64,000 nucleotides of DNA from an uncultured virus (IMG/VR IMGVR_UViG_3300020367_000003) (taxonomy: Duplodnaviria; Heunggongvirae; Uroviricota; Caudoviricetes; Kyanoviridae), in IMG/VR virus record IMGVR_UViG_3300020367_000003; one strand, given 5' to 3'. Positions 15,987 to 64,000 of this stretch are shown here, in pieces; position 1 is the stretch's first letter, and every line of letters begins with the position of its first letter. Position numbers and translations under genes: made by a program. The notes beneath the pieces were generated by a model that was given only the letters and a program-made list of their open reading frames with translations, was not told where the DNA came from and made no database searches.

Positions 15987-16008
15987 GTTGATATCGTAAT
16001 CGATATTA

Positions 16009-17376: not shown

Positions 17377-17409
17377 TGTTAACTGACTCCGTAAGAAATA
17401 GATTGTGGA

Positions 17410-32206: not shown

Positions 32207-33013
32207 TTATCCTATCATGTCTAATGGTGGAGTTTCCCACTGTTGTCTGAGTTGCTCATCCAAATCTTTTAACTCTTGGACTGCATCATTATAAATCATC
32301 TCTCCGTTAAGAGTGACACCACCTGGCATCTGGACGTTTTGGAATTTGGTCATATTAGCACCCCACTGCTTCTTAATCTTAGCAGCAGTGTAATCCTTGA
32401 CCCACATGTTGTCATATATCTCTGTCCATGTGAGAGGATCCAATGCTCTCCAACATTTAATAACAAAATACTGATCTAATAATACATCTGCTTGCCAATC
32501 CATATCAAGATATAATCTATTCTGAGTAGCAATATAACGAGTAGGTTTGATTCCTTCTAATAGAAAATCAATTGTACCCAAGTGTTGCTGAATCATATAG
32601 TAATGATAGAACTGTGTAGATGTAAAATCATACAAGTCATTCAAACGCATCTGATATCTAATATCAAATATGTTTGCAGTACCCTTATCAGTGAAGGAGA
32701 ATATTCCTTCAATGGAAAGTATATGTTGTGGTATTTCTATATAAGTATTTGATTCCAACCACGTGGAATTTCCAGCTACTGAAGTAGTTGTAGTATCATT
32801 AGTATCCTTTGCCCTATCAAGATCCGCCTGAGTTATCTTATGCTTTAGGTAGACTCTTTCAGCACCATCATAATGGAACTGTTGAAACTTCTGTAAGGTA
32901 TAATCAATAGCGTCATCGCATTGATCATCAGAGACGTTGATCTCTAGTACAGGTTTACCTAACCTGCGTAAAGCATATTCTTTTAATTCAGCTTTTGATG
33001 TGGGTGTTGCCAT
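32207..33013 (-). CDS. gp13: Neck protein (T4 gp13)
   Basis: LRRLGKPVLEINV, KKQWGANMTKF, PGGVTLNG. Confidence 0.95.
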   Translation of the reverse strand: MATPTSKAELKEYALRRLGKPVLEINVSDDQCDDAIDYTLQKFQQFHYDGAERVYLKHKITQADLDRAKDTNDTTTTSVAGNSTWLESNTYIEIPQHILSIEGIFSFTDKGTANIFDIRYQMRLNDLYDFTSTQFYHYYMIQQHLGTIDFLLEGIKPTRYIATQNRLYLDMDWQADVLLDQYFVIKCWRALDPLTWTEIYDNMWVKDYTAAKIKKQWGANMTKFQNVQMPGGVTLNGEMIYNDAVQELKDLDEQLRQQWETPPLDMIG

Positions 33014-36000: not shown

Positions 36001-39000
36001 AATAACTGTCTCACCAGTAGCAGAGTCAAGAGTTAAGTTACCAGAGGAAGTATCAACTTCAGATGCACCTGATACACCAATCTGCACGTTGTCAGCAGTG
36101 ATGTCAGTAGATGTAATTGCCTGATTGAATGTTACTGTACCTGTGAAGGCATGAGCATCACCAGAGTTGTTACCAATCTGTGTGTTACCATCTACATCTA
36201 ACGTACCAGTGACTGTGAGGTTATCATCGACTTGAGTCTCTCCAGTTGCGGAGTCAAGTATAAGGTTGTTTCCAGAAGTTGTGCTAATTTCAGAATCAGA
36301 GTCCACACCAATAGTAACAGAATCAGCTGTGATATCTGTGGAAGTGATTGCTTGGTTGAATTGAACTGTACCTGTAACAGAATGAGCGTCACCAGAAGCA
36401 TTACCAATAGTAGTATTTCCATCAACGGTAAGGGTACCATCAACCTTGGTATTACCATCGACATTAAGGTTGAGGTCAACATCTAAATCATCTGTAACAT
36501 TTACTGTACCACCTGCTGAATCTAATACTAGATTTCCAGAGGTAGTAGAAATTTCAGTATCACCATCAACACCTATTTTAATATTATCCGCAGTGATATC
36601 TGTGGAAGTAATCGCTTGGTTAAACTGGACAGTACCTGTAACACTATGTGCATCAGATCCAGAATTACCGATAGTTGCGTTACCATCTACTTGGACAGTC
36701 CCTGCTATTACAGTGTTACCTGTACCAGCATCAACTGTAAACTTAGTAGAGTTGACCGCAAAATCATCAGTTACATCAAGAGTACCTGTGATATCTACAT
36801 TGCCACCAAAACTACCATCATCAGTAACAACTAAGTCGTCTCCAACATAGAAGTCAAGACCTACAGAAGCACCACCACCTACGATTAATGCACCTGTAGC
36901 AGCATTAGTAGCATTAGTTGTATCAAATAATTTTAAACTTCCTGCATCAATTCCTGAGCGTACTCCAGAGAATGCCTCTGATGAATTAGTTGCAGCATTA
37001 TAGAATGCATATCTTGATGCTGAAGTATCCCAACCAAAGAATCCTATTCTTGCAGTAACACCATCATGGTATCTAAATTCTATACCACGGTCTAATGCAT
37101 CTTGAGAACCTGGAGCAGTGTCTCCACCCAATGTGAATACAGGGTCATCTACAGTTACTGTAGTGCTATTAACTGTTGTAGTAGTACCATTAACTGTGAG
37201 GTTACCTTCGATTAATGCGTTGGTGTTGACTGTTAAACTTCCGTCAACTGTGACATCATCGGTAAATTGCGATACTGCATTGACTGTTAATACATCAGTA
37301 TTAGCATTACCAATGGTAGTAAGACTACCAGTTATATTAAATTCTCTATTAAATGTTGCGTCACCATGGACTACGAGAGCACCATCTGTTGCACCACCCT
37401 GTCCTACACGACCTATAGTTGTATATCCAGACTCACCTAAGATAGAAAACTCTACGTTATCATTAGTACCAACCTTACCAACATAGAAGTCATCTCCTAC
37501 ATGTAGGTCTGCTACGATACCTGCACCACCTGCTACTCTAAGGTTTGCATCTGGGTCATCAGCGAATGTTGCGTTATGTGCTGCAACACTACCAATATAC
37601 TCACGATATCTTACATCTAAGTTATTAAGTAGAGAAGGACGTGTCCTTGCTGTACCAGCATCCTTAGAATCAATTCTGTCTGAGACATATAAGTCTCCAC
37701 CTATTCTTACATCCTTATCGATGTTAACACCACCTGCAAATGTAGCATTTCCATCAGCAGTCTTAGTGATGGCATCGTTAGCAGTAGTATCAACTGTTAT
37801 ATTATTTGTCCTTTCAAAGGTGTTGAATCCACCTATGTTTAAACTACCTTCAATATCAGTGTTACCATTTGTGCTACTGATAAGGAATTTAGTATCGGTA
37901 CCATTAGTAATCTTAAACTCTTTACCAGTGACATCCATTAGGAAGTCATTATGGAAGACTACATCATCATCAACATCTAATGTGCTGTTAAGAGTAGTAG
38001 CACCATCTACATCTAAAGTACTGTTTAAGGTAGAACCACCATCGATGTCCATCGTGCCATCGGTGTGGAAGTTACCATTGTCAGTATCAACCCAGAATAA
38101 GTTATCACCATTTGCATTCTGGACCATGAATCCCTTATTGTCTGCTCTAACATAGAAGTCAGAATAGAAATAAGCATCACCATCAGCATTAGTTGTACCT
38201 TTAATAACTGTGTTACCAGTATCAGTATCAACTGTAAACTTATCTACACCCGCAGCAGTCTGAATCTTAAAGTCTTCATTATCAGACTTGATTAACACTG
38301 TATCGTTAATCTCTGTCTGTCCTGCGATAGTTGTAGTACCACCTATGTGGACATTTTGTGATATACCTACACCACCAGTTACTACCAGAGACCCTTCCGA
38401 CGTGGAGTTGCTTCCTGTGTTTGTTGTGAGTGCGAGTGTTCCAGCAATGATAGGAGCGTCAGTGCCAGAGAAAATTTCAGAGGAGTTAGTGGCATCGAGG
38501 AGGAACCTAAAGCCGCCAGTGCCAGTCCATATGTTAGAGTTTGCATAATCGTTATCCCAACCAAAGAATCCAACCCTTGCTTGGTCTCCAGTTCTATAAT
38601 ATCTAAATTCTATACCACGATCTTTACTATCAGCAGAACCTGGAGCAGTGTCTCCACCCAATGTAATGATAGGATCGTCTACTGTCATTACAGTTGAGTT
38701 AACTGTAGTGGTCTGACCTTGTACTAATAGGTCACCCCAAATTTCTACAGTACCTGTATTCTGTTGATTGTCATCTGGATCAAGGACCAGATTACTGCCA
38801 GGATCGCAAGCCAAGACATTAGCTTTCGCATGGAAGTTTTCAAAACATACCCTCGCATCTGGATGTATGGCAGTAAGGACCATTCCTTGGTCTGCCTGTA
38901 TATTAATTGTTGCATTACCTGCCCCTGCGTTAGTAGAGGAGATAAGCATGTCAACATCATTTGCTGAATCCGCAGCATAAGTAAATCTCATGCGGTTGGT

Positions 39001-41110: not shown

Positions 41111-44100
41111 CTATGTAGCTAACGCTATAGCCCTCAAGTCGGCAATCAATGGAACTCTTGCTTGACTCCAAGATCTCATTACGATTTTTATCTGGAATGC
41201 GTTAAAATTAAGTCCGTTAACTTCGTAAGCATAATCCTTCCAAAGAATTTCATCAGTACCAGAAGAGTCATATGATTGGTTATTGACCTCACTTAGAGGA
41301 GCACCAACATATGTCCATCCAACTGTATTAGGATCAGCGTTATCACCTTGCTTGAATGCACGATAGTAAACTCTAATCTCTGTTGATGGATGTCTAGTAG
41401 TTTGGAAATCAATCTTAATAGTTCTGGCCTCAGAACCTAGGCGAGCGAGACGAGTGAGATACACTGCGTCATTCTGGTCACCAGTTGGTAGGACGCTTAC
41501 ATCCATTGTCCTATCAATCTGAGACTGCTGTCCATAAGGAGCAGGACCGCCAGGCCACCAGTTGATTCTATTAGATGTTGTAATCAATGATAATCTATCA
41601 AGGTCAATACATGGAGACACAGAATCTTTCTCTGTGGTCAATGTTAATGCCATGGTAAGAGACTTATTACCATCAAGTTTATTTTGCTCGTTAATTTTAG
41701 AGCAAATCATTTGTGGTGAAGTGAAAGCATTTTGCTCATTCAACACAATATCATAATATTGTCCATTATTAACGAAGGATGCTTGGTCACGTGGTTGTGA
41801 TGCACCTTCTCCACCTCCACTACCTACAGATGTGGCAGTAGTTGTGTTAACACGTGCTGTTACCTCAGTCTCAGGCAACACCATGGTTGATACTCTAGGA
41901 GTTAGAGTCTCAAACTGGACGTTTTGAGATGACCATACATGTGTTCCTCCACCTCTGATACCATTAGTTGCAACGTGGTCAACTGCTATCATAAATGTAT
42001 CCAACCAAGGACACTCAATAGAGGTATGTACTTTGTTGATTTCTGTAAGAGGTACCCCATCTAAATTGTAACATTCAACTATGCTACCTGAGGGATGCTC
42101 TACATCAGCAGTACCAGCAGCACCTCTACCAGAAGTTGCGACAGTTAATACCTGTCCATTAGCAGAGATTGCTGAGTATTGTATGATTTCATCTTCAATC
42201 TTTATATAACCAGGATTTAAGTTACCGATTATAGCACCACCTATCACACCATGGAATTGGGATACATCTTGTACCTGAATTGAAGTAGCACCTGCTGACA
42301 GAGTTGTAGTCAACGTTGTAGATGGAACTTCAGATATAACACCTTCAATTTCTACGTTGTTGGTGCGTTGATGCATACCATGGTTTCTATGTGAGATGGC
42401 AATTTCTTTGTCGTCATCAGGGAATGATGGAGCTTGTGTAGGATAAGCAACATAAGAGTCACCACTATAACCAATGCTTGTAATAGTAGCAGATGTGCCT
42501 CCTGGCTCTGATAATGTATCTCCAGTATCAAATGCCTTACTGATATAATTTAATGTCAAAGTTGTTGTACCTGCATCGTATGCAGTAACTGTACCTGTAG
42601 CACCAGATGTTGAACCTGTTACCACATCTCCAACTTCAAACGTGCCATTATATACAGCAGATAATACTATTGAAGAAACTGACTGTGAAGACCTAAGTCC
42701 TTGGAATGGGTCATTGTTAGCATCTAAAAATCCTGCTGCGAATGCACCATCTATATCTGTGATGGTTAACTTCTCTGGATCTGATATTGAGTCAAATTCT
42801 ACTATAGTAGCAGATGCTCCTGATGGTTCCTGCTTAATCCTTGCACCTATAGTAAAGTTAAAGTTTTGTGTAGCAGGTAGAAGTAAGGTTTGTTTTGGTT
42901 TTAATGTGAGGATTGGATTCTCAATAAGGTTATGAATACCTCCATTACCTTTACCTAATTCAGCGTTATTGAGAATTGCAGTACCTTGCATCTGATTAAA
43001 CTTAGCACGGTATACTGTAAACTTCATGTCCTCAAACTGGTCAGCAGTCCAAGTAGATGCGTTTTGTGATTTGAATAGCACACCCGCATATGGCTGCTCA
43101 GATATAGTCCTTGTTCCTGATACATCTATATCACCCATTCGAGATATCCATACGGTATACTCGTTAGAGTCAGATAGTAATACGAAACAATATTCAGTTG
43201 ATTGTTTGATATAAACAGGAGACCTGAATGTAAACCTTGATGGAATTGCTGCGTTGTCAGACAACTCAATCTGTGAAGGACTGATAGTCACATCTGAGAA
43301 AGGTAGGATATCCTTAGTGGGATAACCATTCTCCATAGTCCTTATCTGCATAGAGATAGGGATGTTGGCATCCTTTGTTTTGAAGAATACATCAACACCA
43401 GTTAAGAATACACCACCTTCTTCATCACATAGGAATGATTGAGCAAGAGGGTCATACCAACCAATCTGCCTTGTCTCAGTCCTAGTAGTGATAACCTGTC
43501 TCGTATCTGAAACGGTATCTCTAACCAACTCTGCATTTCTAACTGCAAGAATATTTTCTCTAACAGTTTTCAATTCACCTTGTGCTGTGTAAGTAGTTTC
43601 AGCAGAAGAATCTACTTCACCACTTGCCTTACTATTAGTAGAGGAGGTAGTAAAACGGAATGTCCTAGTACCTGTTGCCCAACGTGGGTTGGAATCATTA
43701 CCTGGGTTAGGTATGAAGAATGTACCTTGTAGGTTACCAATATTGTCAGTCAATAGACGACGGTCTTTAACAACACCACGTGCTCCAGATGTCTGTCCTA
43801 TCAATATTTCACCAATCACCATATTACCATAGTAGTTTGGATTGACGCTCTCGGCCAATGACTTCGTATCTATGTTAATATATGGAGTATTTGATGCATA
43901 AGACTCTTGTAGTGTAGCGGTACCTGTAGCATAAGGGTCAGTTGCATATCCATCATTCGCAGCAGCGACTTTAAGACGACAACCTGAGATACTACCAACT
44001 ACAGTTTCACCTGTAACAAAGGGTGTTTCATTACTTAATGGGTTAGCAGTAGATGACTTAACTAACTCAATTACTTTAGGGGTAATGTAAGTAGATACGT

Positions 44101-47100
44101 TAACTCCATCGAAGAATGCAAATACTCTTGTGCGAGGCTTCATACGCTCTACGTTGAAGGCTACGTTTCGTGAACGTATCCATGGAATCGCTGTTTGTGA
44201 TAATACGCTATCACCTAAAGACTTTCTATCAATCTTTGGTACTACACGAGTCCTAATACCCTGTCTTGCTTGGTTATTAACAACCCTCCAAGTCCTTCTT
44301 TCATGTACGAAGATGGGTTGTCTTCCTTGTCCGTGACCTAATCTTCCTAGTTTACGACCACCTGCTGAGAAACTACCAGACCTATTCCTAAACTGTGATG
44401 TGGATAGTAGAGATTCTCCAGTCCAGTTAGTCTTCCAACTACCCCACTGGATAGGTGCGAAACCATTCTGGTCAACTTGTAAATCTCTTGATACAGCAGA
44501 GAAGTCACCTTCTACGTTTTCAACACGTGCAGGTAATCTCTTAGTATCTAACCAGTCATCAGATGCAGGAGTTAAGTCAACTCTACCGATGAAAGTAAAC
44601 ACGTTAAATGGGTTTACATTCTCTACCCTAGATGCATAGGGTTGAGTGATGATTGCTAAATCATCCCATGGCAGCAATGCCATGTTACCTTCTGTCTTCA
44701 CTATATTAGAAGACGAAGCCATATTTAATTCTAGTGGTACGTTTGTAGTATAGTGTGACGGTCTGAGGAATCCGTTTTGGAAATCGAGAGAGCATTTGTA
44801 GTCAATACTAAACACGTCACCAACGTTATGGTCAGTGAAGTCATCAACAACGTAACCATTCTTAAGACGGTCAAATCCGTTGTCATCATATGTCTTAGTA
44901 TTTTCTGCTTGTACCTCTAGCAGTGACAATGATGTGTAGTATTCAACGTGCTCAAGACGTGTCTCTAAATCTCCGATATCTTTCATCGTATAACGACGAA
45001 TGATTTCTGGGTTAATCAGAATGTCTCTTTCTACGTCATAAACATATGGGCGGTATTCAATCTGTGCTAATAGCATAGCATTCTCGATACCGTCTGGGGG
45101 AGGTAAGTCCTCAGAGGATACACCTTTAACTACCTTAAGTTGGTTATCGTGCGTTAAATATAACTTATCTGCACGTGGGAGATAGTATGCATAGTCCATA
45201 CGAATCTCTGTATTAACCTTCGGTATATCGAAGATAGTAGATCCACCAACACCTCCAGAGGTGTCAAATTGTCTTGCAGCAAAGTCTAGTGACGCACAGT
45301 TAACATAGAATGGTTGTGTAACTGTACCTGACCCTGATGCTAATTCTCCTACACCTGGACGGAAGTCTACTTGGTCTCTCAAGAAGTTAATAGATCCATC
45401 TAGTTTGTATTTTGGAATATCTTTATAGTCTATACCTGTGTATGACTGTGATGCAAAGTAGTCACCTGATGATTCATGTATGAAGTAATCAAATATAACA
45501 AGAAGTTTTCTGATTGGTGGGGTATACTGTGGATACCTTGTAATCTTACAAACATCATAGAAGTGTGCCTTCTGACCTGCTTCAAGAGTATACTGAGTGG
45601 TAATAACTTTACTACCCCTAGATACTGATCCTTCAGCGTCATCAACGATTGCGTTAAGTGGTACACCATCATCATCTACACCATCAATAGTCTCACCCGC
45701 AGCAAATGGTATTTCATTTAACTGCACAAAGTATAGTCTTAATGTGGAGTTGATAAACTGAATAACTCTACCACGTGCACCTGATGTCCTACCTACGATA
45801 ACAGTTCCGTTATCAAAGAAAGTAGATTCGGTTAATACAACATATGGTGGAGCAGCATCTGCATCAGTCTCCGATTCGTATACAGCATGTACGTTGTATA
45901 CATCATTCAAAGCGAATGAAATTTCTTCATCTTCAATACGTGTGCCATACAAATTACCATAGGCAAGTCCGTATTTAGTTTGGTCGTTGTTAATCCGAGT
46001 GCGAATAACCTTCATCGCTCTCATCTTAGCAGCAGTTTTGATTTTTTTAGATACTATATTCTTAGAAACTAGAGCAGTTAATTTAATAGTATTAACATTT
46101 GCTAGTTGGTCAATAGTAATTGACTGTCTGTCAGCACCAAAGGTAACTGTTAATGTACCTGCTTCACTTAGTGCTTCTATATTAAGGTTGTCTCCAACAT
46201 TCCATGCAGATCCTGATTCAGCAATAATAGTTAAGATATAGTTTTCATCATCTAGTGTTGCAAACTGCTCTGATTCAGGTAGTGAAACTGTAACACCACC
46301 AGATACAACAGTCTTATTATTAAATGTCCTATAGACAAAGAATGACTCGTCAGCAATAGACTTCATAGAAGTCCTTGGTGTGTCAATAGTTAATTCACCA
46401 TTCTGATAGTCCTTCTGGAATACGAAAGGACGCATTCTAATAAGTGAGTTAACTTCAGCATCATTAACAGTACCTTTTTTGGCAGCTGCTTCTAGTAATG
46501 CATACTGATTAAGATAATCAAATATAAATCCTGACTGACCTGTAGCAGCATTTTGTGCTGTAATATTCAATGCTGTAACGTCAACTGTCTGAATCCTAAG
46601 AGTATTCTCACCCTCAGAAGAAGTATTAGTTGAGGTAACAACATCACCTGGACGTAAGTCATTAGCAAACTTAGTCCTAAATCCTTCTAATCTGCTATTA
46701 CCTGCTTGGTCAATAGTAATAGTAGACCCTTCTATTTCTGCTTGGTCATTTAATAACCAGTTAGCACCGAAGATAATAGTAGATGAACCATTACTTGGAT
46801 CTTCTCTACCTACGCATGAACGTGTATCTGTAAGGTTGAAAGTATGTGCTGCTTCCATTGTACCAACAACTCGGCCATCACGCTCGATAACCTCGCCATT
46901 TAGGAAGACACCTGAAACTTGCTCTAGTCTACAGTTGGTACCTGAACCTGATTCAGCAACGAAACCTGTTGCTTGAGATGTCCTACCACGTAGTAAATCA
47001 CCCACTGCAACACTGTTATTACCTGCTGCAAAGTTGATTGCAGTAAACATTTGAGCATCAAATATCCACAAATCCCAAATACCAGTCTGGTCTTCCTGAA

Positions 47101-48445
47101 GCTGGACTGTCCTACAACGTCCAATTAGTGTACCAGTTACAGTATTTGTGGTATTAAGTGTCCAGTCATCATATAACTCAAGTGTTTGATATGCTGCTGA
47201 TACACCTTCACCTGTTAGATTAGGCCATCCGTAGATGTCATAAACCTTTACAAACTGCCCTAGTCTGAATGCTAGTATGGCGTTTTGCACTGAATCAAAG
47301 TCTCTTGGTTTGTCTGCATCCACGTATTGTGGTACCAAAAACTCTGTCCTATAACCTTTAACGTATGCTCTACCTGGGCTAATCTCAAATGAAATTAAAT
47401 CGTCTGATGCTAATTGTCCACCAGAGGTTGTTTCACCTGCACTATAAACACCATTATTAAATCCGTCGTCTAAACTTTCTCTTGCCTTAACAGCGAAGGT
47501 ATCAATTACATAGTCTCCACTTTCTTCAAAGGTTCTCCTTGCAAGTGACCTTTCCAACTCTGAATAAGCAGTGTGAGTAACGAACTGTTCAATCTTTGAG
47601 TTGTTGATACGAAGTAGTTCAATAAAGTTTTTATCGGTCTCATCGTTGATTGGTTTCTTAACGAGAGAAGTTTTAATTCTAAATCTGTGACCACCTGGAG
47701 CAGAATAGTTAGATGTGCCAGCTGCGTTGTCATTAAGACTTGGGTCGTCTTCTGGCGTAACGATTGATTCACTGACTTCAAGTCCAACTCTGTAGGAAGG
47801 GTTGTTACTATATTGGTCAAGGATGAGATATGATGATGCAACATCTACAAAATGTCCTCTAATAAAGTATACACCTGCGTTAATATATGCAGTTGATGCA
47901 ACCGCAGTAGATTCAACAGGTAGTAATTGTGCGAATGGGGATCCAACCTCAATAAGAGTTGTACCGAAAGTTATTTCATTTTCGGCCAATAGTTGCTCGT
48001 TGGGCTGAAATGTCTTGATACCAGTGTCACTTACAGAGTCACCTGACTCAACATACTTAACGTATAGAGTAATATATCCACGACTAGACTCTGTAGAGGG
48101 GATTGAATATAAGACTTTTGCTTTAATACCAGTGGTAATACCTTCTATAATCTGTCCTGTAATCTGAGTACGATATGTCTCAACGTCTACACCAAGGAAA
48201 GATTGTTGCAGTATGATTGCTTGCACCTGTAGGTCATAACCGACCTGACCAGGAATAACCATACTTCCTTCTTTAAAGAAGTGTTGTCCAACCGACTCCA
48301 ACTGATTCTGAAGAATCGATTGCATAGTCGTAAGCTCTCTTGCCTGTATCGGATACCCAGGTCTAAAGAGGACTCGATAAAAATTCTTGTCTTTATCGAA
48401 GTCATCAAAGTATGGACTAATATTTAAATTGGTATTCTGTGGCAT
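41111..48445 (-). CDS. 2444-aa virion structural protein (VrlC/DUF4815-like baseplate component)
   Basis: NLNISPYFDDFD..KNFYRVLFRPG.PIQARELT, LARRTFEESGDY, DPLAQSF, LFKSQNASTW, DLRAIALA. Confidence 0.9.
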   Translation of the reverse strand: MPQNTNLNISPYFDDFDKDKNFYRVLFRPGYPIQARELTTMQSILQNQLESVGQHFFKEGSMVIPGQVGYDLQVQAIILQQSFLGVDVETYRTQITGQIIEGITTGIKAKVLYSIPSTESSRGYITLYVKYVESGDSVSDTGIKTFQPNEQLLAENEITFGTTLIEVGSPFAQLLPVESTAVASTAYINAGVYFIRGHFVDVASSYLILDQYSNNPSYRVGLEVSESIVTPEDDPSLNDNAAGTSNYSAPGGHRFRIKTSLVKKPINDETDKNFIELLRINNSKIEQFVTHTAYSELERSLARRTFEESGDYVIDTFAVKARESLDDGFNNGVYSAGETTSGGQLASDDLISFEISPGRAYVKGYRTEFLVPQYVDADKPRDFDSVQNAILAFRLGQFVKVYDIYGWPNLTGEGVSAAYQTLELYDDWTLNTTNTVTGTLIGRCRTVQLQEDQTGIWDLWIFDAQMFTAINFAAGNNSVAVGDLLRGRTSQATGFVAESGSGTNCRLEQVSGVFLNGEVIERDGRVVGTMEAAHTFNLTDTRSCVGREDPSNGSSTIIFGANWLLNDQAEIEGSTITIDQAGNSRLEGFRTKFANDLRPGDVVTSTNTSSEGENTLRIQTVDVTALNITAQNAATGQSGFIFDYLNQYALLEAAAKKGTVNDAEVNSLIRMRPFVFQKDYQNGELTIDTPRTSMKSIADESFFVYRTFNNKTVVSGGVTVSLPESEQFATLDDENYILTIIAESGSAWNVGDNLNIEALSEAGTLTVTFGADRQSITIDQLANVNTIKLTALVSKNIVSKKIKTAAKMRAMKVIRTRINNDQTKYGLAYGNLYGTRIEDEEISFALNDVYNVHAVYESETDADAAPPYVVLTESTFFDNGTVIVGRTSGARGRVIQFINSTLRLYFVQLNEIPFAAGETIDGVDDDGVPLNAIVDDAEGSVSRGSKVITTQYTLEAGQKAHFYDVCKITRYPQYTPPIRKLLVIFDYFIHESSGDYFASQSYTGIDYKDIPKYKLDGSINFLRDQVDFRPGVGELASGSGTVTQPFYVNCASLDFAARQFDTSGGVGGSTIFDIPKVNTEIRMDYAYYLPRADKLYLTHDNQLKVVKGVSSEDLPPPDGIENAMLLAQIEYRPYVYDVERDILINPEIIRRYTMKDIGDLETRLEHVEYYTSLSLLEVQAENTKTYDDNGFDRLKNGYVVDDFTDHNVGDVFSIDYKCSLDFQNGFLRPSHYTTNVPLELNMASSSNIVKTEGNMALLPWDDLAIITQPYASRVENVNPFNVFTFIGRVDLTPASDDWLDTKRLPARVENVEGDFSAVSRDLQVDQNGFAPIQWGSWKTNWTGESLLSTSQFRNRSGSFSAGGRKLGRLGHGQGRQPIFVHERRTWRVVNNQARQGIRTRVVPKIDRKSLGDSVLSQTAIPWIRSRNVAFNVERMKPRTRVFAFFDGVNVSTYITPKVIELVKSSTANPLSNETPFVTGETVVGSISGCRLKVAAANDGYATDPYATGTATLQESYASNTPYINIDTKSLAESVNPNYYGNMVIGEILIGQTSGARGVVKDRRLLTDNIGNLQGTFFIPNPGNDSNPRWATGTRTFRFTTSSTNSKASGEVDSSAETTYTAQGELKTVRENILAVRNAELVRDTVSDTRQVITTRTETRQIGWYDPLAQSFLCDEEGGVFLTGVDVFFKTKDANIPISMQIRTMENGYPTKDILPFSDVTISPSQIELSDNAAIPSRFTFRSPVYIKQSTEYCFVLLSDSNEYTVWISRMGDIDVSGTRTISEQPYAGVLFKSQNASTWTADQFEDMKFTVYRAKFNQMQGTAILNNAELGKGNGGIHNLIENPILTLKPKQTLLLPATQNFNFTIGARIKQEPSGASATIVEFDSISDPEKLTITDIDGAFAAGFLDANNDPFQGLRSSQSVSSIVLSAVYNGTFEVGDVVTGSTSGATGTVTAYDAGTTTLTLNYISKAFDTGDTLSEPGGTSATITSIGYSGDSYVAYPTQAPSFPDDDKEIAISHRNHGMHQRTNNVEIEGVISEVPSTTLTTTLSAGATSIQVQDVSQFHGVIGGAIIGNLNPGYIKIEDEIIQYSAISANGQVLTVATSGRGAAGTADVEHPSGSIVECYNLDGVPLTEINKVHTSIECPWLDTFMIAVDHVATNGIRGGGTHVWSSQNVQFETLTPRVSTMVLPETEVTARVNTTTATSVGSGGGEGASQPRDQASFVNNGQYYDIVLNEQNAFTSPQMICSKINEQNKLDGNKSLTMALTLTTEKDSVSPCIDLDRLSLITTSNRINWWPGGPAPYGQQSQIDRTMDVSVLPTGDQNDAVYLTRLARLGSEARTIKIDFQTTRHPSTEIRVYYRAFKQGDNADPNTVGWTYVGAPLSEVNNQSYDSSGTDEILWKDYAYEVNGLNFNAFQIKIVMRSWSQARVPLIADLRAIALAT

Positions 48446-55452: not shown

Positions 55453-55459
55453 TATTTAG
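55453..55459 (-). promoter_or_regulatory. Late promoter CTAAATA
   Basis: TAAATA core overlapping the giant-gene stop. Confidence 0.55.
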
Positions 55460-58400
55460 TTGTCGTCAAAGATAAGGTCTGGAGTGAAGTTACTCAAGAT
55501 AGTAGCACCAGTCTGGACACTCAATGTAGCAGAGAGTGAGTAAACTGGGATTGCACCTGCTGCTGTGATAGCGACTCTATATTCGTCACCATCATCTGCT
55601 TGTTGTGTGATAGAAGTATTGTATGTTGCTTGGTTAGCACCAATGATGTTGCTCCAAGTCTGTGTACCATACTCCTTCTTCTGCCACTGATAATTCATTG
55701 TCTGGTCGTTAGTTACACTAGAGACAACTGTGAATGCTGCATTCTGACCTTGGTTAACAGTAACGTTAACTGGATCCTGAAGAATTGCTATTGTACCAGA
55801 TTCGATTGTGGTACCTCCACCACCTGCATCTGTGCCTTCACCTGCGAATACATCAAATCCACCGTTAATTGGTGCACCTTCTGGAGGTGTGAAATCATCT
55901 GGAACTACGTTATCAATAGCAACATTTGGTATAGAGTATCCAACACCAGATGTCTTAACATCTATGCGTGTAATACCCATCAATGCCTTGATGCGAGAAT
56001 CAAATCCAGAGGAAGATATAACGTCAACGTTAGGACGTGAAGTATAACCATCACCAGAGTTGGTTAGGTTAGCACCTGTTATCTTACCAGAGGTTATCTG
56101 AGCGATAGCAGCAGCATTTCTACCCTTAACTGATCCTGTATACTCAAAAGTAATCAAGGAGTTGGAAGATTCAATTAGAGCAACTTCACGATTAAATTCC
56201 TCACCCTCGATAAAGAGTTGGTCACCTGCCTCAACAGGAGGTACGACTGTTGCTGCGATAACGTCAGCATCACTACCAATATATGAGAAACCAACGAAGG
56301 TTGATCCCGCACGTGGGACTTCAGCGAAGATTAATCGTGAACCAACAATCTCGTATGCTAGACCTGGTTCCTGAATAATACCGTTAAGTGATACGATAAT
56401 GTTATTCTCAGGACGTATAACGTTAGAAGATACACCTTCAGTCAGTGTTAAGGAGTAGAATAAACCTTGACGCTTAAGGTTGAAGGAAGATCTCAATGAG
56501 TCAAACTCATAACTGATATCATCTAACTGACGTAATTTACCAACATAGTATCCAACGAATTGTGATCCAATCTCAGGAGGCTCAGCAAACTGAATCTTAT
56601 CTGAGTATGCAACATAAGAGTTAGCACCACCTGGAGGTTGTAGAATACCATTAACGAATACTAATAGATGTCCAGCTGGATCTGGGAAGTATGCTTCACC
56701 ATTAGAAATGGTTAAGTCAAATATTGTTTGATTTCCATCAAATCCTCTGAAGTATCTGTCAACTCTACCCTCTAGTGTCCTAGCAGAAGTAACAGCACCA
56801 CCCCATCCAAAGTCAGATACAAGTGACATATTATCAACAAAATCACCAACTGCATTCTCTACCCAAATTTCAGCAGTAATACCTGCTTGCTCTATAGCAA
56901 CTACTCTTGCATAAGATGAGTAATTTGTTGTAGTTACGTTTGTGCACTGTGCGTATATTGTTGGGAAATTAGACCCTAATTGAATCTTACCAATAGTATT
57001 AATTCCTTGAGTTACCTCAGAGATATCAGCACCTGCTCCAACAGGTACTAAGTTACCAATCCAAACTTTATGAATACCATAGTTAGGCTCGCCTGGATCT
57101 AATTCTAGACCATTAATATACTTGGTTACAGTAGCAATCCAACCTGGATTCTTCTGGACGGTACCTTGTAGGAGTGTAACCTCGTCACCAACGTTGAATG
57201 TATCAGAGATACCAGTATCAACGATAGGTACGCCTAGGTCTAATTCATAGGTTACTCTACCGTGTAACCACTGATTCAACTGAATTTGTGTACCACTAAT
57301 ACCCTTAACTGAAAGAATATAGTTAGTAACACTACCGTAGATAATATCACCAGGAGTCCACTGACTATCAATGGTCTCAACATCGATTGTAATTCTACCA
57401 CCTTCATTACCAGTTAGAGAACCAGACTTATTAACATAAGCATCCATGTATGCTTCAGTGTTAGCACCTTCCTCGAAGAACCAGTCACCTGCTGAGAATG
57501 CACCAGATGTAACGTTAAGTAAGAATCTTTCAGATGGAGTACCAACTGTTGCAGTTGTGCCACTATCTACACCCTCAACAACATCATTCAAGTTAATAGC
57601 ACCTGCGATGGAGTTAAGTTTAAGGATAGATTCACCTGTGTCATCATCTGTTGCAGCAGTCTGTAATACAAAACCAGTATTAGAAGTTGCACCTTGGACT
57701 TGGACAGTCTCACCATTAATGAAGTTTTCGTATGTGCCAGCCGATTGTGATACACCAGTTAAATCATAGTGTGTATACATCTTATAAATCTTACCTTCAT
57801 TAGTAAGGACATTTGATACCTCAGCACTAGATCCAGATGTTGACCCATATACAACGTCAGCAGCATTGAATCCACCTTGTATTGGAGTATCGGACATATC
57901 AACTGGGTATGTAGGAGCAGTCCTTGAAATACCACTTCTCTGCATTACTTGGAATACCTGTGTGTTTGAGTTAGATGTATCTACTTGTAGTAATCTAAAT
58001 CTACCATCGTGGATATAGGAAGCACCTATTTCAAACCACTGAGCAGTAGCAGTTAGACAGTAGAAATATTCCTGATTTGTCAATCCACTAAGAGCTTGAC
58101 CACCAGTAGGAATGTAACTTAACACATCACCACGACGGAAGTTGTTTGGTTGATTAATTCTTATTCTATATTCAGCACGGTCATATCCAACTTCAACTTC
58201 AGGAGTTAGAGTAACCAATGCAGGGTCGGTGTTATAATCCCAACCTACTTCATTCCTTGTAACACGGTTAACAGCATCACTAGATGCAATCCACTGGACT
58301 CTTGCTTCTGTTGGGAATTCTCCTCTCTCTAAAGCAAATTCAAGTGGGTTAAGTGAAGAGTCAACCATAAATTCAACTGCTTCTTGATTCCACTCAAGTC

Positions 58401-61400
58401 TTCCTTCTGGGACATATACATCGTAATTATTCCATACAGCATCTTCACCAACAAGATACATAACACTCTTAATATATTCTCTAACTCTTGTTAAACAATA
58501 TAAGATGTGTGTCCTAACTACGGTTGGGAATGCTATGAAGTTACCTTCACCGTCAAACCACTGTTGTGCTAATTCAAATGCACCTGAGTTACCACCAGTT
58601 ACTAAGTCATAACGTACTGCTGCAAGGACATCATTAGCAAAGTCAATAGTTAGATTAGTTGTAGGCCAGTTAACCTGTGTCTCACCAAATGCTCTTCCTG
58701 CTATTGCTTGCTGATTGAAGAGTATCATGTTAGCGATATTCTTGGAGTTATTTGATCCAGCACCAAGTGTATGCTTCATAATATCAAACAACGTATCAAT
58801 AGCAGATGTTACGTTATAGCATGTGCCATCTTGATATATTGTGTTGCTATTGAATGGGAATGTCTTAGTAACGTTTGAAGTTAAGTAGTTAACATTATTA
58901 TTTGCTGCCTCTGCTATTGTTTGAATGTAGATATCAGCAACAGTAGCGATTGTTGAAGCAACGTTTTGACATGTTTGATTCCATGTACCTTGGTTACCTT
59001 GTCCACCCTGTGCTGTATCATATTGAATAGTAAGATCTCTTACTACAACTTCTGGAGTATACTTAACAGGCCATACAGTAGGCATGATGTAAGACCTACT
59101 TGCAACTGTGTTAGGATTAGTAAGTCCATCAGTTACAAATTGTATGAGTTGTGTAATCTCAGTTTCTACTGGAGCACCTTCTGTACCTGTGTAGTTTTGT
59201 GATACCTGACGTGACCTGAAGTATTTCAAATCTTGAGTAGGCCATGCCCATGAGTTAGACATTTGGACATGTAATTTCTTACCGTCAGCATAGTCTGTCA
59301 CACGAGGATATGTGTGGTTAGTTGCATTCTGGTCTTGACTACATGTGAATGTTAATCCGTTAGTATCAATTTCAATAGTATCATCAGTTGTTAAACTATG
59401 ACCTGCAACAGTTAGAGTTAACTTACCTGTTGTTGGGACGTAGTATGCATCAGTAGGTGTTAATGTAGCACCACTATTTGTTACCTTAATGCATCCAGAT
59501 GCAGCAGATACAAAGTTATGTCTATAGTTACCACCCTGTATTAAAGCACCAGAGTTAGCACTTACAAATCTGTGAGCATATGTATTACCCGCAGGTGAAG
59601 GTCCAACGTTAATCTTAATAGTACCGTCTTGCTTCCATATACCACCTTCAGCACAAGATACAAATGTATGCTTACCTAAGAATGATGATGGGACTCCTTT
59701 CAATACTTGGACATCAAATGTATCCACAGTGACATTAGATACTGCCAACCATTCATTACTTGCATGGTCTGTATCTCTAGGATATAAGTGCTCAGTTTCA
59801 TAATCATCTAAATCACATGTGAAGTTAAGAGCACCATCTTTTATCAAGATATATGAATTTGCTTTCTCAATTCCACCTGTGGCAGCAGATACAAATGAGT
59901 GCATATAATTACCACCTGCTATAACAGCACCAGGAATTGCACTAACAAATGTATGGTCATATAGGTCAGCAGTAGCAGCAACATTTACATTAACTGTAAT
60001 CTTACCACTCTGTCTGTGTAGTGAATTTGGCTTAGCAGATGCAAATGTATGTGTATAGTTTCCACCCGCAGTTACACCACCACTAACAGCAGATACGAAT
60101 GTATGATTATACTCACCACCGATAGTAACAACAGACCTCTGAATACTAGATGCTACAGCAGATACAAATGTATGGTCAGTTGTGTTTGTGGAAGGTACGT
60201 TTTGTAATACTTGGACATCGAATGTATCAACATTACAGTTAGAAATCTTCAACCATCTTCCACTTGATGGATCTGATGCTCTTGGATAATCGTGATATGT
60301 AACGTTATTATCCTTATCACAAGTAAACTTAAATGCATCATCAGCAATCTTAATATACTCACCATCTATGAAACCGTTACCAACGATAACAGCACCTGCA
60401 AGTGCAGATTGGAATGTATGGGTAGTAGTATCAGTGATAGCACCCTGACCACCGTTAACGTTAACTGTGATTGTGCCACCTGCTTGGTCTACAGCAGTAA
60501 TTGCTAATGCAGTATCATATGCATAATCTTTTCCATCAGAAGTAGATGCACCTTGTGCACGAGGATATGTCTTCTGAGTTACGTTTCCATCTCCACCATA
60601 ATCACAAGTGAATGTTAATGAATTAGGCTTCAACTTAATTACATCATCTGTAGTTAAAGTATGAGCACCGATTGTTAATTCTAATGTACCAGAAGTTGGG
60701 TTGTATGCAGCACCTGTAACGTTTTTAGTGTCACCAGGAATGCTGATATTCATTAAACCTGATGTTGGGTCATATGATGCAAAAGTTGGTGTGTAAACGT
60801 TATTAGCGTTTTGGAAATAATGAGTTGTAGTGTTAGAAGATGTACCAACATCAACTGTAATACTATCAGCAGATACAGAAGTAATTTCTACTCTATTATT
60901 GTATGCAGGGTCATTACCTGTAGCACCACTGAATCCATTAGGACGTGGATATACGTGGTCAGTTTGCTGTGAGTCTTGGTCGCAACGGAATACCATTGAC
61001 TTGTTAGCAATCTTGGCATACATACCAGTCTTAAGCTGATGGTTGCCGATTGTCATTGTCAATAGACCTGTGGCAGGTACAAAGGATGCACCACTAACAC
61101 CATATCCTTTAGCTGGTGACTCACCAACGTCAAGACTAATAGTAGAATTCTTCCATTGTACTCCACCATCAACGAAACTATCGAAGGTATGAGCATAAAC
61201 TCCACCACCTCTAATTACACCTCTTATAACAGCACCAGGTAATGATGATACCCATGTGTGAGTTGTAACGTTAGAAGAAGTACCAACGTTAACTTTAAAG
61301 TTAGATGCATCTACAACAGTAACTGTCAACCAAGTATTATTTGAAGCAGGGTCTGATGCTCTAGGATATGAATGAGTTGTTTGGTCATTATCTTCTTGAC

Positions 61401-64000
61401 AAGTGAATGTGAATCCTTGATCCTTAAGCATAACCTTATCACCTGAGGTGAATGGATGACTAGGCATTGTGATTGTTAATTCACCTGAGCCAGGTACGAA
61501 GGATGCACCAGAAACATCGAATGCATTTTCAGACCTTACAAATAGATGAGTTGATGTATCTGAAGATTTACCAACGTTAACTGTAATAGTTTCATCTCCT
61601 ACAGAAACTATAGGAACTGAAGTATCATAATATGGGTCATCAGCAGTAGCACCACCTTGACCATTAGCACGTGGATACTTGTGCTCAGTAGCATAACCAT
61701 CATTATTACACTTGAATACTAATGACTCATTCTCAATGTAAACTGATTCGTTTGCTCTCTGAAGTCCGTTTGCAGCAGCAGACCAGAATTGATGTGCATA
61801 ACCACCACCAGACATAACAGCACCTGCTGATGTTCCACCAGCCCATGTGTGAGTAGTTACGTCAGTAATAGCACCTTGACCACCGTTAACGTTAACTGTG
61901 ATTGATGTTCCTGTCTTAGCAGTAATAACCAATGCTGCATCATAAGCATAGTCTTTACCGTTTGCAGTAGCAGCACCAGATGAGCGAGGATATGTCTTCT
62001 GAGTTGTCTGACCATCACCATTATAATCACAAGTAAATGTTAATGAATTTGGCTTAAGTTTGATACTATCACCAACATCCAAGTTATGTGATCCAATGGT
62101 TAATTCCATTACACCACTGGTAGGATTGTAATTAGCGTTAGTTACGTTATGAGTTGTCTTAGGTGATGTACCAACATTAATAGAGAATGTATGAAGTGTT
62201 ATATCATCAATTTCTAACCATGTGTTATGTGCAGGGTCAGTTGGTCTTGGATAAGATTTAACAACATCATATCCATCCATACCACACTTGAATGAAATTG
62301 AATTATCTACAAACTTAACTCTATCGCCAATAATGAATCCATGATCAGGAACTGTGATAACCATCTTACCAGTTATAGCATCATAGGTACCATTAGTTAC
62401 TGTATGTGTTGTGCCACCATGATATCCATGCTTACCAATAGTAAGTTCCATGTCACCTGATGTTGGGTCAAATGTGGCAGCAGAAACTAGGTAGTTAGCA
62501 CGAGGTGTTTTACCAACGTTAACATCAATAGTATTTGTTTGCTTGTTGGAAATTTCTAACCATCTATCATAAGCAAAATCTGTCTTTCTAGGATAAGAGT
62601 GCTTAGTAGCATTGTTATCCATATCACAAGTCATGATTAGTGAATTAGGCTTCAACTTAATCATGTTACCATTAGCAAATGGATGACCATTAATTGTTAA
62701 TTGTAGGACACCTGTCTCAGCATTATATGTTGCACCTGTAGCAGTATATTCACCATGACCAACTTTCTTAATTTCTATAGAATGGTCATATGCTCTATCT
62801 CTCTTATGAGATACACCACCTGATGCGAATGTTGTAAATGTATGTGTAAATGATCCACCTGCTCTGATAGATCCTCTCTTCATTGCACCTGCTTTAGCAT
62901 ACTTGAATGTATGAGCAGAAGTGTTAGTAGAAGGAGTTTCATCTAAAACTTTAACAGTGAATCTATTGTCATCAATTCTTGTAATTGTTAACCATCTGTT
63001 GCTTGCAGGGTCACCGTGTCTTGGATAAGCATGCTCAGTAGCATGGTCATCTTTACCACATGTGAAGATTAAGGAATTATCCTCAAACATAATCTGCTCA
63101 CCTGTTATCATGCCATGACTTGCATAGGTAACAGTCATCACACCAGATACACCACTATATGTCACATTCTGTGGAGTTAAACCTACAGCAGGTTTGAAGA
63201 TATGAGCATGATTAGATGCTCCAGAAGGTGATGGGTTAACATTAACTGTTATAGTGCTATCATCAACAGCAGTTACAGCAACAGCCTCTTGATATGCAGG
63301 GTCATCACCAGATGCACCACCACTACCATTAGGACGTGGATAGAAGTGGTCACTTCCATGACCATCTTGTGCACAAGTGAAGCACATTGATTCACGATTA
63401 ATGTAAACACTATGTGCAGTTGTAATACCGTGGTCAGGACCAACAGTGATTACCATATTACCTGTAGCAGGATTATAATCTACTTGCTGTGGATCGAAAC
63501 TCTTGAATTCTGTCTTACCAACAAAAATATCAAATGTATTTTCAGTTGCATTCTCTACAGGTTTCCATTTTCCACTAATAGGATCTGTTGATCTTGGATA
63601 TGTCTTACCTGATGAATTACCATCCATTTCACAGGTAGCAGTAAGAGCATTATCTGCAATCTTAATTAATGATCCGTTATCAAATCCATGACCATTAAGA
63701 GTTAATGTTAGATAACCAGTTGTGCCATCATATGCTCCTGCTGTTGGAGTAAATGTGTCAACAGTTGTCCTTGGATATGCATGGTTAGATGCATTCATAT
63801 CCATGTCACAACTAAAGGTAACAGCACCATCAGCAAGTTTAACACTTTGACCAACCTTAAGTGGGTGAGCACCAATATTCAATTCCATATGACCTGAATA
63901 TGGGTCATAAGAAGCATCAGCAGGAGTATACTGGACAGAAGGTGTAGTGCCTACATTAATATCAAATGTAGATGCAGTTACGTTAGAAATTTCTAACCAC
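55456..64000 (-). CDS. Giant baseplate wedge/fibre structural protein (gp7-region), 5'-truncated
   Basis: The frame stays open from 63888 to the window end (WLEISNVTASTFDINVGTTP...); FDG..T.F.L, LLVFVNGILQPP, IIVSLNGIIQEPG motifs; C-terminal Ig-like domain. Confidence 0.85.
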   Translation of the reverse strand, partial: WLEISNVTASTFDINVGTTPSVQYTPADASYDPYSGHMELNIGAHPLKVGQSVKLADGAVTFSCDMDMNASNHAYPRTTVDTFTPTAGAYDGTTGYLTLTLNGHGFDNGSLIKIADNALTATCEMDGNSSGKTYPRSTDPISGKWKPVENATENTFDIFVGKTEFKSFDPQQVDYNPATGNMVITVGPDHGITTAHSVYINRESMCFTCAQDGHGSDHFYPRPNGSGGASGDDPAYQEAVAVTAVDDSTITVNVNPSPSGASNHAHIFKPAVGLTPQNVTYSGVSGVMTVTYASHGMITGEQIMFEDNSLIFTCGKDDHATEHAYPRHGDPASNRWLTITRIDDNRFTVKVLDETPSTNTSAHTFKYAKAGAMKRGSIRAGGSFTHTFTTFASGGVSHKRDRAYDHSIEIKKVGHGEYTATGATYNAETGVLQLTINGHPFANGNMIKLKPNSLIMTCDMDNNATKHSYPRKTDFAYDRWLEISNKQTNTIDVNVGKTPRANYLVSAATFDPTSGDMELTIGKHGYHGGTTHTVTNGTYDAITGKMVITVPDHGFIIGDRVKFVDNSISFKCGMDGYDVVKSYPRPTDPAHNTWLEIDDITLHTFSINVGTSPKTTHNVTNANYNPTSGVMELTIGSHNLDVGDSIKLKPNSLTFTCDYNGDGQTTQKTYPRSSGAATANGKDYAYDAALVITAKTGTSITVNVNGGQGAITDVTTHTWAGGTSAGAVMSGGGYAHQFWSAAANGLQRANESVYIENESLVFKCNNDGYATEHKYPRANGQGGATADDPYYDTSVPIVSVGDETITVNVGKSSDTSTHLFVRSENAFDVSGASFVPGSGELTITMPSHPFTSGDKVMLKDQGFTFTCQEDNDQTTHSYPRASDPASNNTWLTVTVVDASNFKVNVGTSSNVTTHTWVSSLPGAVIRGVIRGGGVYAHTFDSFVDGGVQWKNSTISLDVGESPAKGYGVSGASFVPATGLLTMTIGNHQLKTGMYAKIANKSMVFRCDQDSQQTDHVYPRPNGFSGATGNDPAYNNRVEITSVSADSITVDVGTSSNTTTHYFQNANNVYTPTFASYDPTSGLMNISIPGDTKNVTGAAYNPTSGTLELTIGAHTLTTDDVIKLKPNSLTFTCDYGGDGNVTQKTYPRAQGASTSDGKDYAYDTALAITAVDQAGGTITVNVNGGQGAITDTTTHTFQSALAGAVIVGNGFIDGEYIKIADDAFKFTCDKDNNVTYHDYPRASDPSSGRWLKISNCNVDTFDVQVLQNVPSTNTTDHTFVSAVASSIQRSVVTIGGEYNHTFVSAVSGGVTAGGNYTHTFASAKPNSLHRQSGKITVNVNVAATADLYDHTFVSAIPGAVIAGGNYMHSFVSAATGGIEKANSYILIKDGALNFTCDLDDYETEHLYPRDTDHASNEWLAVSNVTVDTFDVQVLKGVPSSFLGKHTFVSCAEGGIWKQDGTIKINVGPSPAGNTYAHRFVSANSGALIQGGNYRHNFVSAASGCIKVTNSGATLTPTDAYYVPTTGKLTLTVAGHSLTTDDTIEIDTNGLTFTCSQDQNATNHTYPRVTDYADGKKLHVQMSNSWAWPTQDLKYFRSRQVSQNYTGTEGAPVETEITQLIQFVTDGLTNPNTVASRSYIMPTVWPVKYTPEVVVRDLTIQYDTAQGGQGNQGTWNQTCQNVASTIATVADIYIQTIAEAANNNVNYLTSNVTKTFPFNSNTIYQDGTCYNVTSAIDTLFDIMKHTLGAGSNNSKNIANMILFNQQAIAGRAFGETQVNWPTTNLTIDFANDVLAAVRYDLVTGGNSGAFELAQQWFDGEGNFIAFPTVVRTHILYCLTRVREYIKSVMYLVGEDAVWNNYDVYVPEGRLEWNQEAVEFMVDSSLNPLEFALERGEFPTEARVQWIASSDAVNRVTRNEVGWDYNTDPALVTLTPEVEVGYDRAEYRIRINQPNNFRRGDVLSYIPTGGQALSGLTNQEYFYCLTATAQWFEIGASYIHDGRFRLLQVDTSNSNTQVFQVMQRSGISRTAPTYPVDMSDTPIQGGFNAADVVYGSTSGSSAEVSNVLTNEGKIYKMYTHYDLTGVSQSAGTYENFINGETVQVQGATSNTGFVLQTAATDDDTGESILKLNSIAGAINLNDVVEGVDSGTTATVGTPSERFLLNVTSGAFSAGDWFFEEGANTEAYMDAYVNKSGSLTGNEGGRITIDVETIDSQWTPGDIIYGSVTNYILSVKGISGTQIQLNQWLHGRVTYELDLGVPIVDTGISDTFNVGDEVTLLQGTVQKNPGWIATVTKYINGLELDPGEPNYGIHKVWIGNLVPVGAGADISEVTQGINTIGKIQLGSNFPTIYAQCTNVTTTNYSSYARVVAIEQAGITAEIWVENAVGDFVDNMSLVSDFGWGGAVTSARTLEGRVDRYFRGFDGNQTIFDLTISNGEAYFPDPAGHLLVFVNGILQPPGGANSYVAYSDKIQFAEPPEIGSQFVGYYVGKLRQLDDISYEFDSLRSSFNLKRQGLFYSLTLTEGVSSNVIRPENNIIVSLNGIIQEPGLAYEIVGSRLIFAEVPRAGSTFVGFSYIGSDADVIAATVVPPVEAGDQLFIEGEEFNREVALIESSNSLITFEYTGSVKGRNAAAIAQITSGKITGANLTNSGDGYTSRPNVDVISSSGFDSRIKALMGITRIDVKTSGVGYSIPNVAIDNVVPDDFTPPEGAPINGGFDVFAGEGTDAGGGGTTIESGTIAILQDPVNVTVNQGQNAAFTVVSSVTNDQTMNYQWQKKEYGTQTWSNIIGANQATYNTSITQQADDGDEYRVAITAAGAIPVYSLSATLSVQTGATILSNFTPDLIFDDN
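59262..64000 (-). repeat. At least 14 copies of a ~110-aa module (YdPxTGxxxLTIgxH / F.C..D...H.YPR / DP...W..I..V..F.VNVG / HTFVSA), arranged nested rather than tandem
   Basis: 14 C..D....YPR motifs counted in the translation; exact DNA matches of 28 nt (60446-60473 and 61877-61904) and 21 nt (60560-60580 and 61985-62005). Confidence 0.9.

Follow-up and report, generated by a model that had tools for sequence, protein, structure and literature searches.

A probable 30-unit nested β-barrel array in the gp7-position protein of a T4-like cyanomyovirus

Recursive insertion in known systems and at this locus

Insertion of one domain into another is usually one level deep. Deeper nesting has been described for Si3 of the cyanobacterial RNA polymerase β′ subunit, which contains eight sandwich-barrel hybrid motif (SBHM) domains, four of them (SBHM-2 to SBHM-5) discontinuous (PMC10895346), and in which HABAS domains have been inserted within others of their kind, with nine extra domains (PMC11515920). 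In 2026, a survey that covered 2.7 million classified domains singled out the six-level nesting of Si3, a region of 8 domains, as its most complex case (PMC13114784). Here, we describe a DNA stretch of 64,000 nucleotides from an uncultured virus of the Kyanoviridae (IMG/VR record IMGVR_UViG_3300020367_000003), hereafter the window, and within it the C-terminal part of a giant open reading frame (ORF), which occupies 55456–64000 on the minus strand, in the gp7 position of the baseplate module. The region 59251–63999 of this ORF (minus strand; residues 7068–8650 of the full protein) is very probably the second half of a nested array of 30 β-barrel units in the gp7-position protein of a T4-like cyanomyovirus. 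The order of the segments is observed, as are its conservation in relatives and the unit-sized insertions and deletions (indels) between orthologs.

Si3 (RpoC2) and this array are alike in that one small all-β family provides both host and guest, domains are assembled from distant segments, and the result is a branched tree in which some hosts carry several guests. They differ in extent, with 30 units and 10 levels in the array and 8–9 domains and 6 levels in Si3. The array unit also differs from the Si3 domain by sequence; it has no Pfam hit, and its nearest folds are FNR-type and E1-FCCH-type barrels. Furthermore, the array is located in a phage baseplate protein, whereas Si3 belongs to an enzyme, and the array, unlike Si3, shows gain and loss of units among close relatives. 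Recursive insertion within a single family is thus known from Si3; what is new here is a different domain, a putative virion context, and a scale of approximately 30 units and 10–11 levels. With 30 units and ten levels, a tree of this kind in a virion protein would go beyond the six levels given in PMC13114784.

An earlier note on this DNA, written from the letters alone, had known of no description of this architecture at such depth. Our literature search for such nesting in phage proteins found none among the papers listed, and the six levels given in the 2026 survey also agree with that statement; the kind of architecture itself was already known from Si3. Cyanophage genes longer than 15 kb have been reported as apparent fusions to gp7 homologs, probably encoding fiber subunits (Sullivan et al. 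2005, PMC1079782), and the available parts of that article and of PMC3037559 do not mention nested repeats. Two public genes, P-SSM4 orf080 (“baseplate wedge initiator”) and P-SSM2 orf113, have the same gene position and repeat family as the gene described here. P-SSM4 gp7 has 11 units and a depth of 5, compared with 30 units and a depth of 10 in this gene.

Order of segments in the array and its relatives

The giant ORF is a single reading frame of 9,914 codons (G001:C1:149433-179177; 29,745 bases, 9,914 residues, no internal stops) in a record, G001, that covers the window completely. The window holds its C-terminal 2,847 codons, from 55456 to past the window end at 64000; the first residue encoded there is number 7068 in the full protein, whose numbering is used below unless otherwise indicated. 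A hidden Markov model (HMM) of the unit, seeded on four contiguous copies, detected approximately 30 units, all within residues 5487–8650. The array starts upstream of the window, at residue ~5463–5487, and no unit tokens lie beyond residue 8650. The unit is ~100 residues long and consists of five ordered parts: a (Y.P.TG.L.LT...HG), b (..IKI..NSLTFTC..D....H.YPR), c1 (DP....WL.I), c2 (TF.VNVG), and d (..H.F.SA..G). Host and guest units form one homologous family, as the unit HMM and the part HMMs match all 30 units.

The 48 units assembled from this gene (29), P-SSM4 (11), and S-P4 (8) align over 92 columns. The G of part a, the C and D of part b, the Y-P pair, and the H of part d are kept in 48 of 48, including units whose parts stand thousands of residues apart, while R and, in c1, the D are conserved in 47 and the H of a in 43. 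Because these residues are conserved across the assembled units, the His of a, the Cys and Asp of b, and the His of d could share one site, perhaps a metal site, that ties the separated segments together. Many inserted units also have a leader, H-T-x-T-x-A-x-Y, ahead of their a hairpins, for example at window positions 62389–62421 and 62134–62163. This leader is reminiscent of the beginning of the d strand (T-H-T-F-V-S-A) and may represent an extra strand or a trace of insertion.

Part HMMs gave the order of tokens along the chain, and the tokens in residues 5480–8580 were parsed with a grammar in which a unit is a S b S c1 S c2 S d and S is any number of units. The first automatic HMMs scored ten of the 146 tokens weakly or overlooked them (a5674; a5875; c1 6458 and 7468; c2 6171, 6685, and 8018; d 6719, 6839, and 7331), and these were added by eye. 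The strict five-token stack parse closed 29 units, left none open, and produced one fault, an extra d at residue 8558. In 200,000 shuffles of the 52 blocks, there were never fewer than 11 faults, compared with 1 in the real order, and shuffling only the 40 incomplete blocks gave a minimum of 10. Parts a, b, c1, and c2 were each counted 29 times and part d 30 times; when the orphan c2 at residue 5465 and the terminal a-b-c1 are added, every part type amounts to 30. A uniform regular expression found exactly 30 c2 motifs. An HxF expression gave 94 matches, and 30 were left once those in a (HG), b (H.YPR), and c tokens had been excluded by eye.

The parsed tree has 12 leaves and reaches its maximum depth of 10 at U25, and its longest host spans 3,053 residues. 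Its 22 used gaps are distributed over a/b (6), b/c1 (2), c1/c2 (5), and c2/d (9). Wherever a b or c2 resumes, it is preceded by exactly as many d strands as there are units awaiting d above that host, and this match holds throughout this gene, P-SSM4, and S-P4. In the proposed mechanism, complete units would sit in the loops of others at a/b, b/c1, c1/c2, and c2/d, with a fifth site inside b in a relative, and host units would be completed only after their guests, generating the last-in-first-out order. The outcome would be a rooted tree of barrels with 10 levels and 12 leaves, in which the ends of the array meet and up to ~3,050 residues of chain pass before the outer barrels are closed.

A four-part module nested last-in-first-out, approximately 10 levels deep, had been proposed in the earlier note from a manual parse of the window. 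With part HMMs and a stack parse of the full-length gene, this order holds over the whole 3,100-residue array. The 12 units that it had opened inside the window correspond to U18–U29, which open and close there, and its approximately six closers for upstream units are those of U17, U4, U3, U2, and U1 together with one extra d. U18 (60061–63924; this and the following array features are on the minus strand) lies at depth 6, hosts U19–U29, and is split at b/c1, c1/c2, and c2/d. Its c1, c2, and d pieces are located at 62761–62799, 61117–61149, and 60073–60111, in line with the three interruptions (after YPR, inside c, and before d) that had been read for this unit. According to the stack parse, U22 (61150–62742, depth 7) contains U23[U24[U25]] and U26 in its c2/d gap. 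U23[U24[U25]] (61525–62487) is a three-level nest identical to the first example in the note, and U25 itself (61801–62142) is a contiguous leaf unit at depth 10. The second example is U28[U29] (60115–60801), in which the a hairpin is followed by a complete inner unit and then by b, c, and d; the inner unit had been placed at 60379–60732 and is parsed as U29 at 60376–60720.

Toward the end of the array, a pile-up of closers at 59869–60183 comprises the d strands of U28, U18, and U17, c2 and d of U4, and d of U3, which are the five HxF closers noticed earlier. The resumed b-c1-c2-d of U2 is located at 59638–59865, and its a lies at residue 5560, ~2,870 residues upstream. The resumed c2-d of U1 is located at 59542–59631, with its a-b-c1 at residues 5487–5550, ~3,050 residues upstream. 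The extra d is followed by a-b-c1 in the tokens at 59260–59529, so that the last unit does read d-a-b-c. Together with the orphan c2 (residues 5465–5474), this extra d-a-b-c1 may constitute a root unit in circularly permuted form, with the entire array hosted inside it.

The same nesting was found in public relatives. P-SSM4 gp7 (7,312 aa) gave 55 tokens (6 by hand), 0 faults, 11 units, and a depth of 5, and the S-P4 homolog (7,041 aa) gave 40 tokens (3 by hand), 0 faults, 8 units, and a depth of 5, as well as one contiguous d-a-b-c unit upstream. Both proteins are ~30% identical to the product of this gene, and the trees differ. Units 1–6 of P-SSM4 and S-P4 are reciprocal best hits (52–70% identity) at identical tree positions. 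The units that differ between the two lie deeper in the tree, which fits growth by insertion, with hosts at least as old as their guests. All cross-identities between units of this gene and those of P-SSM4 or S-P4 are 40–60%, a range that supports no assignment of unit orthology. Of 1,347 token transitions in 149 metagenome fragments, 1,275 agree with the grammar, and the exceptions mostly look like missed c1 or c2 tokens; of 48 resumed b tokens in the same fragments, 45 come after a d.

Closer relatives were available as orthologs on 13 IMG/VR contigs, 3 of which are identical and 10 of which show 69–76% identity in the queried fragment. Six distinct ortholog sequences were aligned with this gene over 4,100 residues, and only two indels of at least 15 columns were present. 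One ortholog (L015) lacks exactly residues 6073–6172, i.e., U10, the innermost unit in the c1/c2 loop of U9. Three others (L014, L018, and L019) carry one extra complete unit of 109 residues, which interrupts part b of U12 after the FxC..D strand and before H.YPR and marks the fifth insertion site. These alignments support a tree in which whole units are added to or lost from loops. Self-insertion, assumed in the note as the mode of growth, is supported by such gain and loss in orthologs ~70% identical. Whole units that come and go in loops at ~70% identity represent evolution in progress.

U25 and U29 belong to one subtype with long loops (D..GDG..KTYPR, GKDYAYD, and VNVNGGQGAITD). They are 71–72% identical in protein and have long identical DNA runs in common; when their DNA was aligned with 30-base flanks, no obvious flanking repeat was seen. 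This likeness hints at a recent spread of one unit type. The extra unit of the orthologs (around ORF residues 1578–1690 of L014) looks like the U25/U29 subtype, a likeness judged by eye from the loop motifs. Stretches other than units also occur in the trees: a lectin-like stretch in S-P4 (L027, protein residues 4188–4545) and a helical stretch of similar sequence in S-P4 and P-RSM6 (L026, protein residues 5367–5543). As both lie inside the barrel tree, the tree also hosts foreign guests.

Predicted barrels and competing explanations

Structure models were obtained with AlphaFold2 (AF2) for two fragments, and strand pairing was judged solely by the residues at which the alignments of these models with matching structures begin and end. 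The first model, of U23[U24[U25]] (321 aa, 49-row alignment), had a mean predicted local distance difference test (pLDDT) of 82.2 and a predicted template modeling score (pTM) of 0.62. In VIA-align, U25 (model residues 110–226) matches small six-stranded barrels. The best are 4p22_B, the first catalytic cysteine half-domain (FCCH) of UBA1, with Z 7.0 and a root-mean-square deviation (rmsd) of 2.5 over 73 aligned residues, and 4hiz_A, the endosialidase barrel of phage phi92, with Z 6.8 and an rmsd of 2.6 over 79. In four rows, the match extends from model residues 4–13 to 231–238 with only 72–86 aligned, in keeping with a U24 barrel that leaves out U25 and regains its d strand.

The second model, of U28[U29] (229 aa, 24 collinear rows), had a mean pLDDT of 88.5 and a pTM of 0.77, with the outer a hairpin of U28 at pLDDT 91–92. 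The inner unit (model residues 22–145) is matched by 35 of the 50 VIA-align rows, the best being 4p22_B (Z 6.7, rmsd 2.6, 76 aligned), and the model also matches 4hiz_A (Z 6.5, rmsd 2.4, 78 aligned). A further 14 rows match single barrels from residues 1–8 to 224–229 with 59–98 aligned, among which 2qtz_A is the best (Z 6.2, rmsd 2.9, 76 aligned), and the remaining row is odd. These matches indirectly suggest that the discontinuous segments of split units may fold as one barrel.

A pair of more distant segments was assessed by complex prediction, using the a of U2 (38 aa) and its b-c-d (83 aa), 2,870 residues apart, with 7 ortholog rows each. The ipSAE value was 0.40 (runs 0.44, 0.38, and 0.40), compared with 0.01 for the best control; contact agreement was at least 88% and partner pLDDT at least 60, giving a verdict of weak support. 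Of 157 solved complexes, 116 pass the ipSAE mark, as do 2 of 215 mismatched pairs, and scores up to 0.60 include only 18 of the 157 solved complexes together with both mismatches that passed.

The UBA1 FCCH, the phi92 endosialidase, and the FAD-binding barrels of FNR-type reductases thus show a predicted fold likeness to single units. These small β-barrels have no sequence match to the unit and middling Z values, and a shared function is not readable from fold likeness. The unit does not match the E1_FCCH profile (PF16190): a Pfam search of the 2,847 window residues at E ≤ 1 returned 0 families, and the likeness is one of fold only (Z 6.7–7.0). Among named ESM Atlas clusters, a viral E1_FCCH cluster comes nearest (score 0.89) and serves as a lead only. 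RNA polymerase chains were absent from the 50 best VIA-align rows of either model, which does not exclude a HABAS/SBHM fold (CATH 2.40.50.100), and one such chain appeared at Foldseek rank 17 with a TM value of 0.12. No sequence or fold evidence for an origin of the unit from the host Si3 turned up, and no test aimed at it was made.

Several results weigh against an array of nested, folded barrels, and three other explanations draw on them. The bracket pattern might come from token calling, the chain forming a linear, beads-on-a-string or solenoid-like array. Token calling did need curation: the 10 hand-called tokens were subsequently used to train the final HMMs, slightly stricter thresholds lose one c2 and one d and lead to 10 faults in the strict parser, and automatic parses of the relatives before curation had 9–21 faults. 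Such cascades of faults arise in fixed-threshold automatic tokenizing because one or two weak tokens are missed. A looser test, which considered just the a, b, and d tokens and let any of them be skipped (dynamic programming, 100 shuffles each), performed no better than shuffles and was dropped as a test; it used 84 of 89 tokens in this gene (null maximum 84), 30 of 32 in P-SSM4 (null maximum 30), 21 of 26 in S-P4 (null maximum 24), and 39 of 51 in P-RSM6 (null mean 39.4). A linear array is nevertheless largely refuted, and we give it almost no weight, since the five part types are equal in number, 0 of 200,000 shuffles gave as few as 10 faults, orphan b, c1, and c2 tokens almost always come after d, the ortholog indels are whole units within loops, and prediction gives a globular barrel for the contiguous unit. 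Closure in trans or out of order, which would produce a strand-swapped mesh instead of a single-chain tree, is very unlikely. In-order closure within one chain predicts the exact match between d strands and waiting units seen in this gene, P-SSM4, and S-P4, and closure in trans or out of order does not require it. The mesh finds its support in runs of consecutive d strands, which order alone cannot assign to hosts, in the extra d and open terminal unit of this gene, and in the recursively inserted domains of Si3, which sometimes exchange secondary-structure elements according to PMC11515920. P-RSM6 also points in this direction, as it fits the grammar only in part: in a parse covering 7,782 of ~8,573 residues, 16 of 19 units close in order, one closed unit has no recognizable a or b, 3 terminal units are left open, and 2 d strands are orphans.

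The nesting could also be historical only, with the outer split units no longer folding, their a, c1, c2, and d pieces serving as linkers, and the real barrels being the 12 contiguous leaf units and perhaps shallow hosts. We consider this unlikely. The C, D, YPR, and H of d are kept in all 48 units, among them units split by up to ~3,050 residues, and the split segments of U2 are 50–67% identical among orthologs; the well-predicted outer hairpin of U28 and, more weakly, the score of the U2 pair argue in the same direction. What speaks for historical nesting is that the weakest tokens belong to deep hosts, with the d of U5, U6, U8, and U9 at 0–7 bits and the a of U4 and U7 below 0 with the first HMMs, and that the structure predictions cover at most 3 levels. 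The earlier note had expected split barrels, and here the models agree in part: fragments of two or three units give predicted barrel matches that span the outer segments, whereas the outer a hairpin of U23 is at pLDDT < 50. In addition, all VIA-align matches have Z ≤ 7, a middling range, a Foldseek search of the U23[U24[U25]] model against the PDB gave 0 matches at E ≤ 0.001, and the U2 complex test cannot tell its own a from others and would probably pass with any a hairpin.

If the array is nested as proposed, its barrels await closing strands up to ~3,050 residues later, which poses a sharp question of co-translational folding. From the gene position and the annotation of relatives, we infer a dendritic virion appendage, as had been suggested earlier. 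The array would then make up a branched, compact mass at the baseplate periphery that resists proteases and force, and it might serve host-surface contact or spacing. A tentative and rather doubtful extension holds that this is the deepest recursive fold known (10–11 levels), maybe still growing, with a mobile subtype, a root barrel, and a His/Cys/Asp/His clasp. In this extension, the subtype of U25, U29, and the extra unit may act as a domain-sized mobile module that copies into loops of relatives; if true, cyanophage populations would have baseplate appendages of differing tree shape. The array may hang from a permuted root barrel, c2 ... d-a-b-c1, with 3,100 residues entering and leaving at one point. 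The conserved His/Cys/Asp/His site, which spans parts a, b, and d, may clasp a barrel shut once its closing strand emerges. Folding would then have to proceed in order from the inside outward, with as many as ten barrels open at once.

A structure search of BFVD gave 31 matches at E ≤ 0.001, most of the named ones being cyanophage structural proteins, several of which are stored as cut fragments. Databases that cut giant phage proteins break such domains, as in BFVD, where relatives are stored as fragments _1 to _5, and linear domain annotation will misread nested arrays.

Genomic setting and other features of the window

The gene before the giant ORF matches phrog_219, a baseplate wedge subunit (gp6-like), and those downstream match phrog_677, a gp9-like connector, and phrog_438, a gp8-like baseplate wedge protein. 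The giant gene therefore has the placement of a T4 gp7-type gene, between gp6-like and gp8/gp9-like genes. The S-P4 homolog likewise sits between gp6 and gp9, the P-SSM4 homolog is annotated as gp7, and the gene order is the same in both. In tblastn, matches to the family were found in 325 phage records, all of them Synechococcus, Prochlorococcus, “Cyanophage”, or marine-virus entries, and the family is common in marine cyanophages. The best match is P-SSM4 gp7, annotated as the “baseplate wedge initiator”, and the closest public relatives are T4-like cyanomyoviruses. A megablast search of the region against phage records gave 0 matches, and a sequence search of the PDB also gave 0 matches.

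The C-terminal ~1,265 residues of the protein (55456–59250, minus strand) contain no units and no Pfam hit; their matches are to PHROGs for virion structural proteins and baseplate wedge proteins of cyanophages, including phrog_2885 (“baseplate wedge subunit”, E 2e-58). Pfam PF23786 (Baseplate_wedge) matches residues 695–736 with 19 bits, under the 27-bit cut-off. Several other domains were observed in the N-terminal 5,400 residues. Residues 1396–1542 (L010, L009) match a YHYH domain (E 1.7e-28), residues 1975–2004 a β-propeller SBBP repeat, and residues ~4474–4600 a lectin-like Laminin_G_3 domain (E 2.3e-16). Outside the window, at L009:1532-1738 (residues ~4034–4102), the giant protein also matches PF00502 (“Phycobilisome protein”) with E 1.2e-7 and 32.3 bits, compared with a 22.2-bit cut-off. 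A globin fold of the light-harvesting type within a phage structural protein is unexpected.

Two further giant ORFs lie downstream in the module, both on the minus strand. The ORF at 41111–48445 (2,444 aa) matches phrog_358, whose function is not known, end to end. The ORF at 33013–40527 (2,504 aa) matches a “structural protein” PHROG in 13 stretches, indicating that it is also repetitive. Finally, the guanine-plus-cytosine content is 0.443 at window positions 16001–18000, compared with 0.36–0.42 elsewhere in the window, and this segment may contain a gene of different origin.

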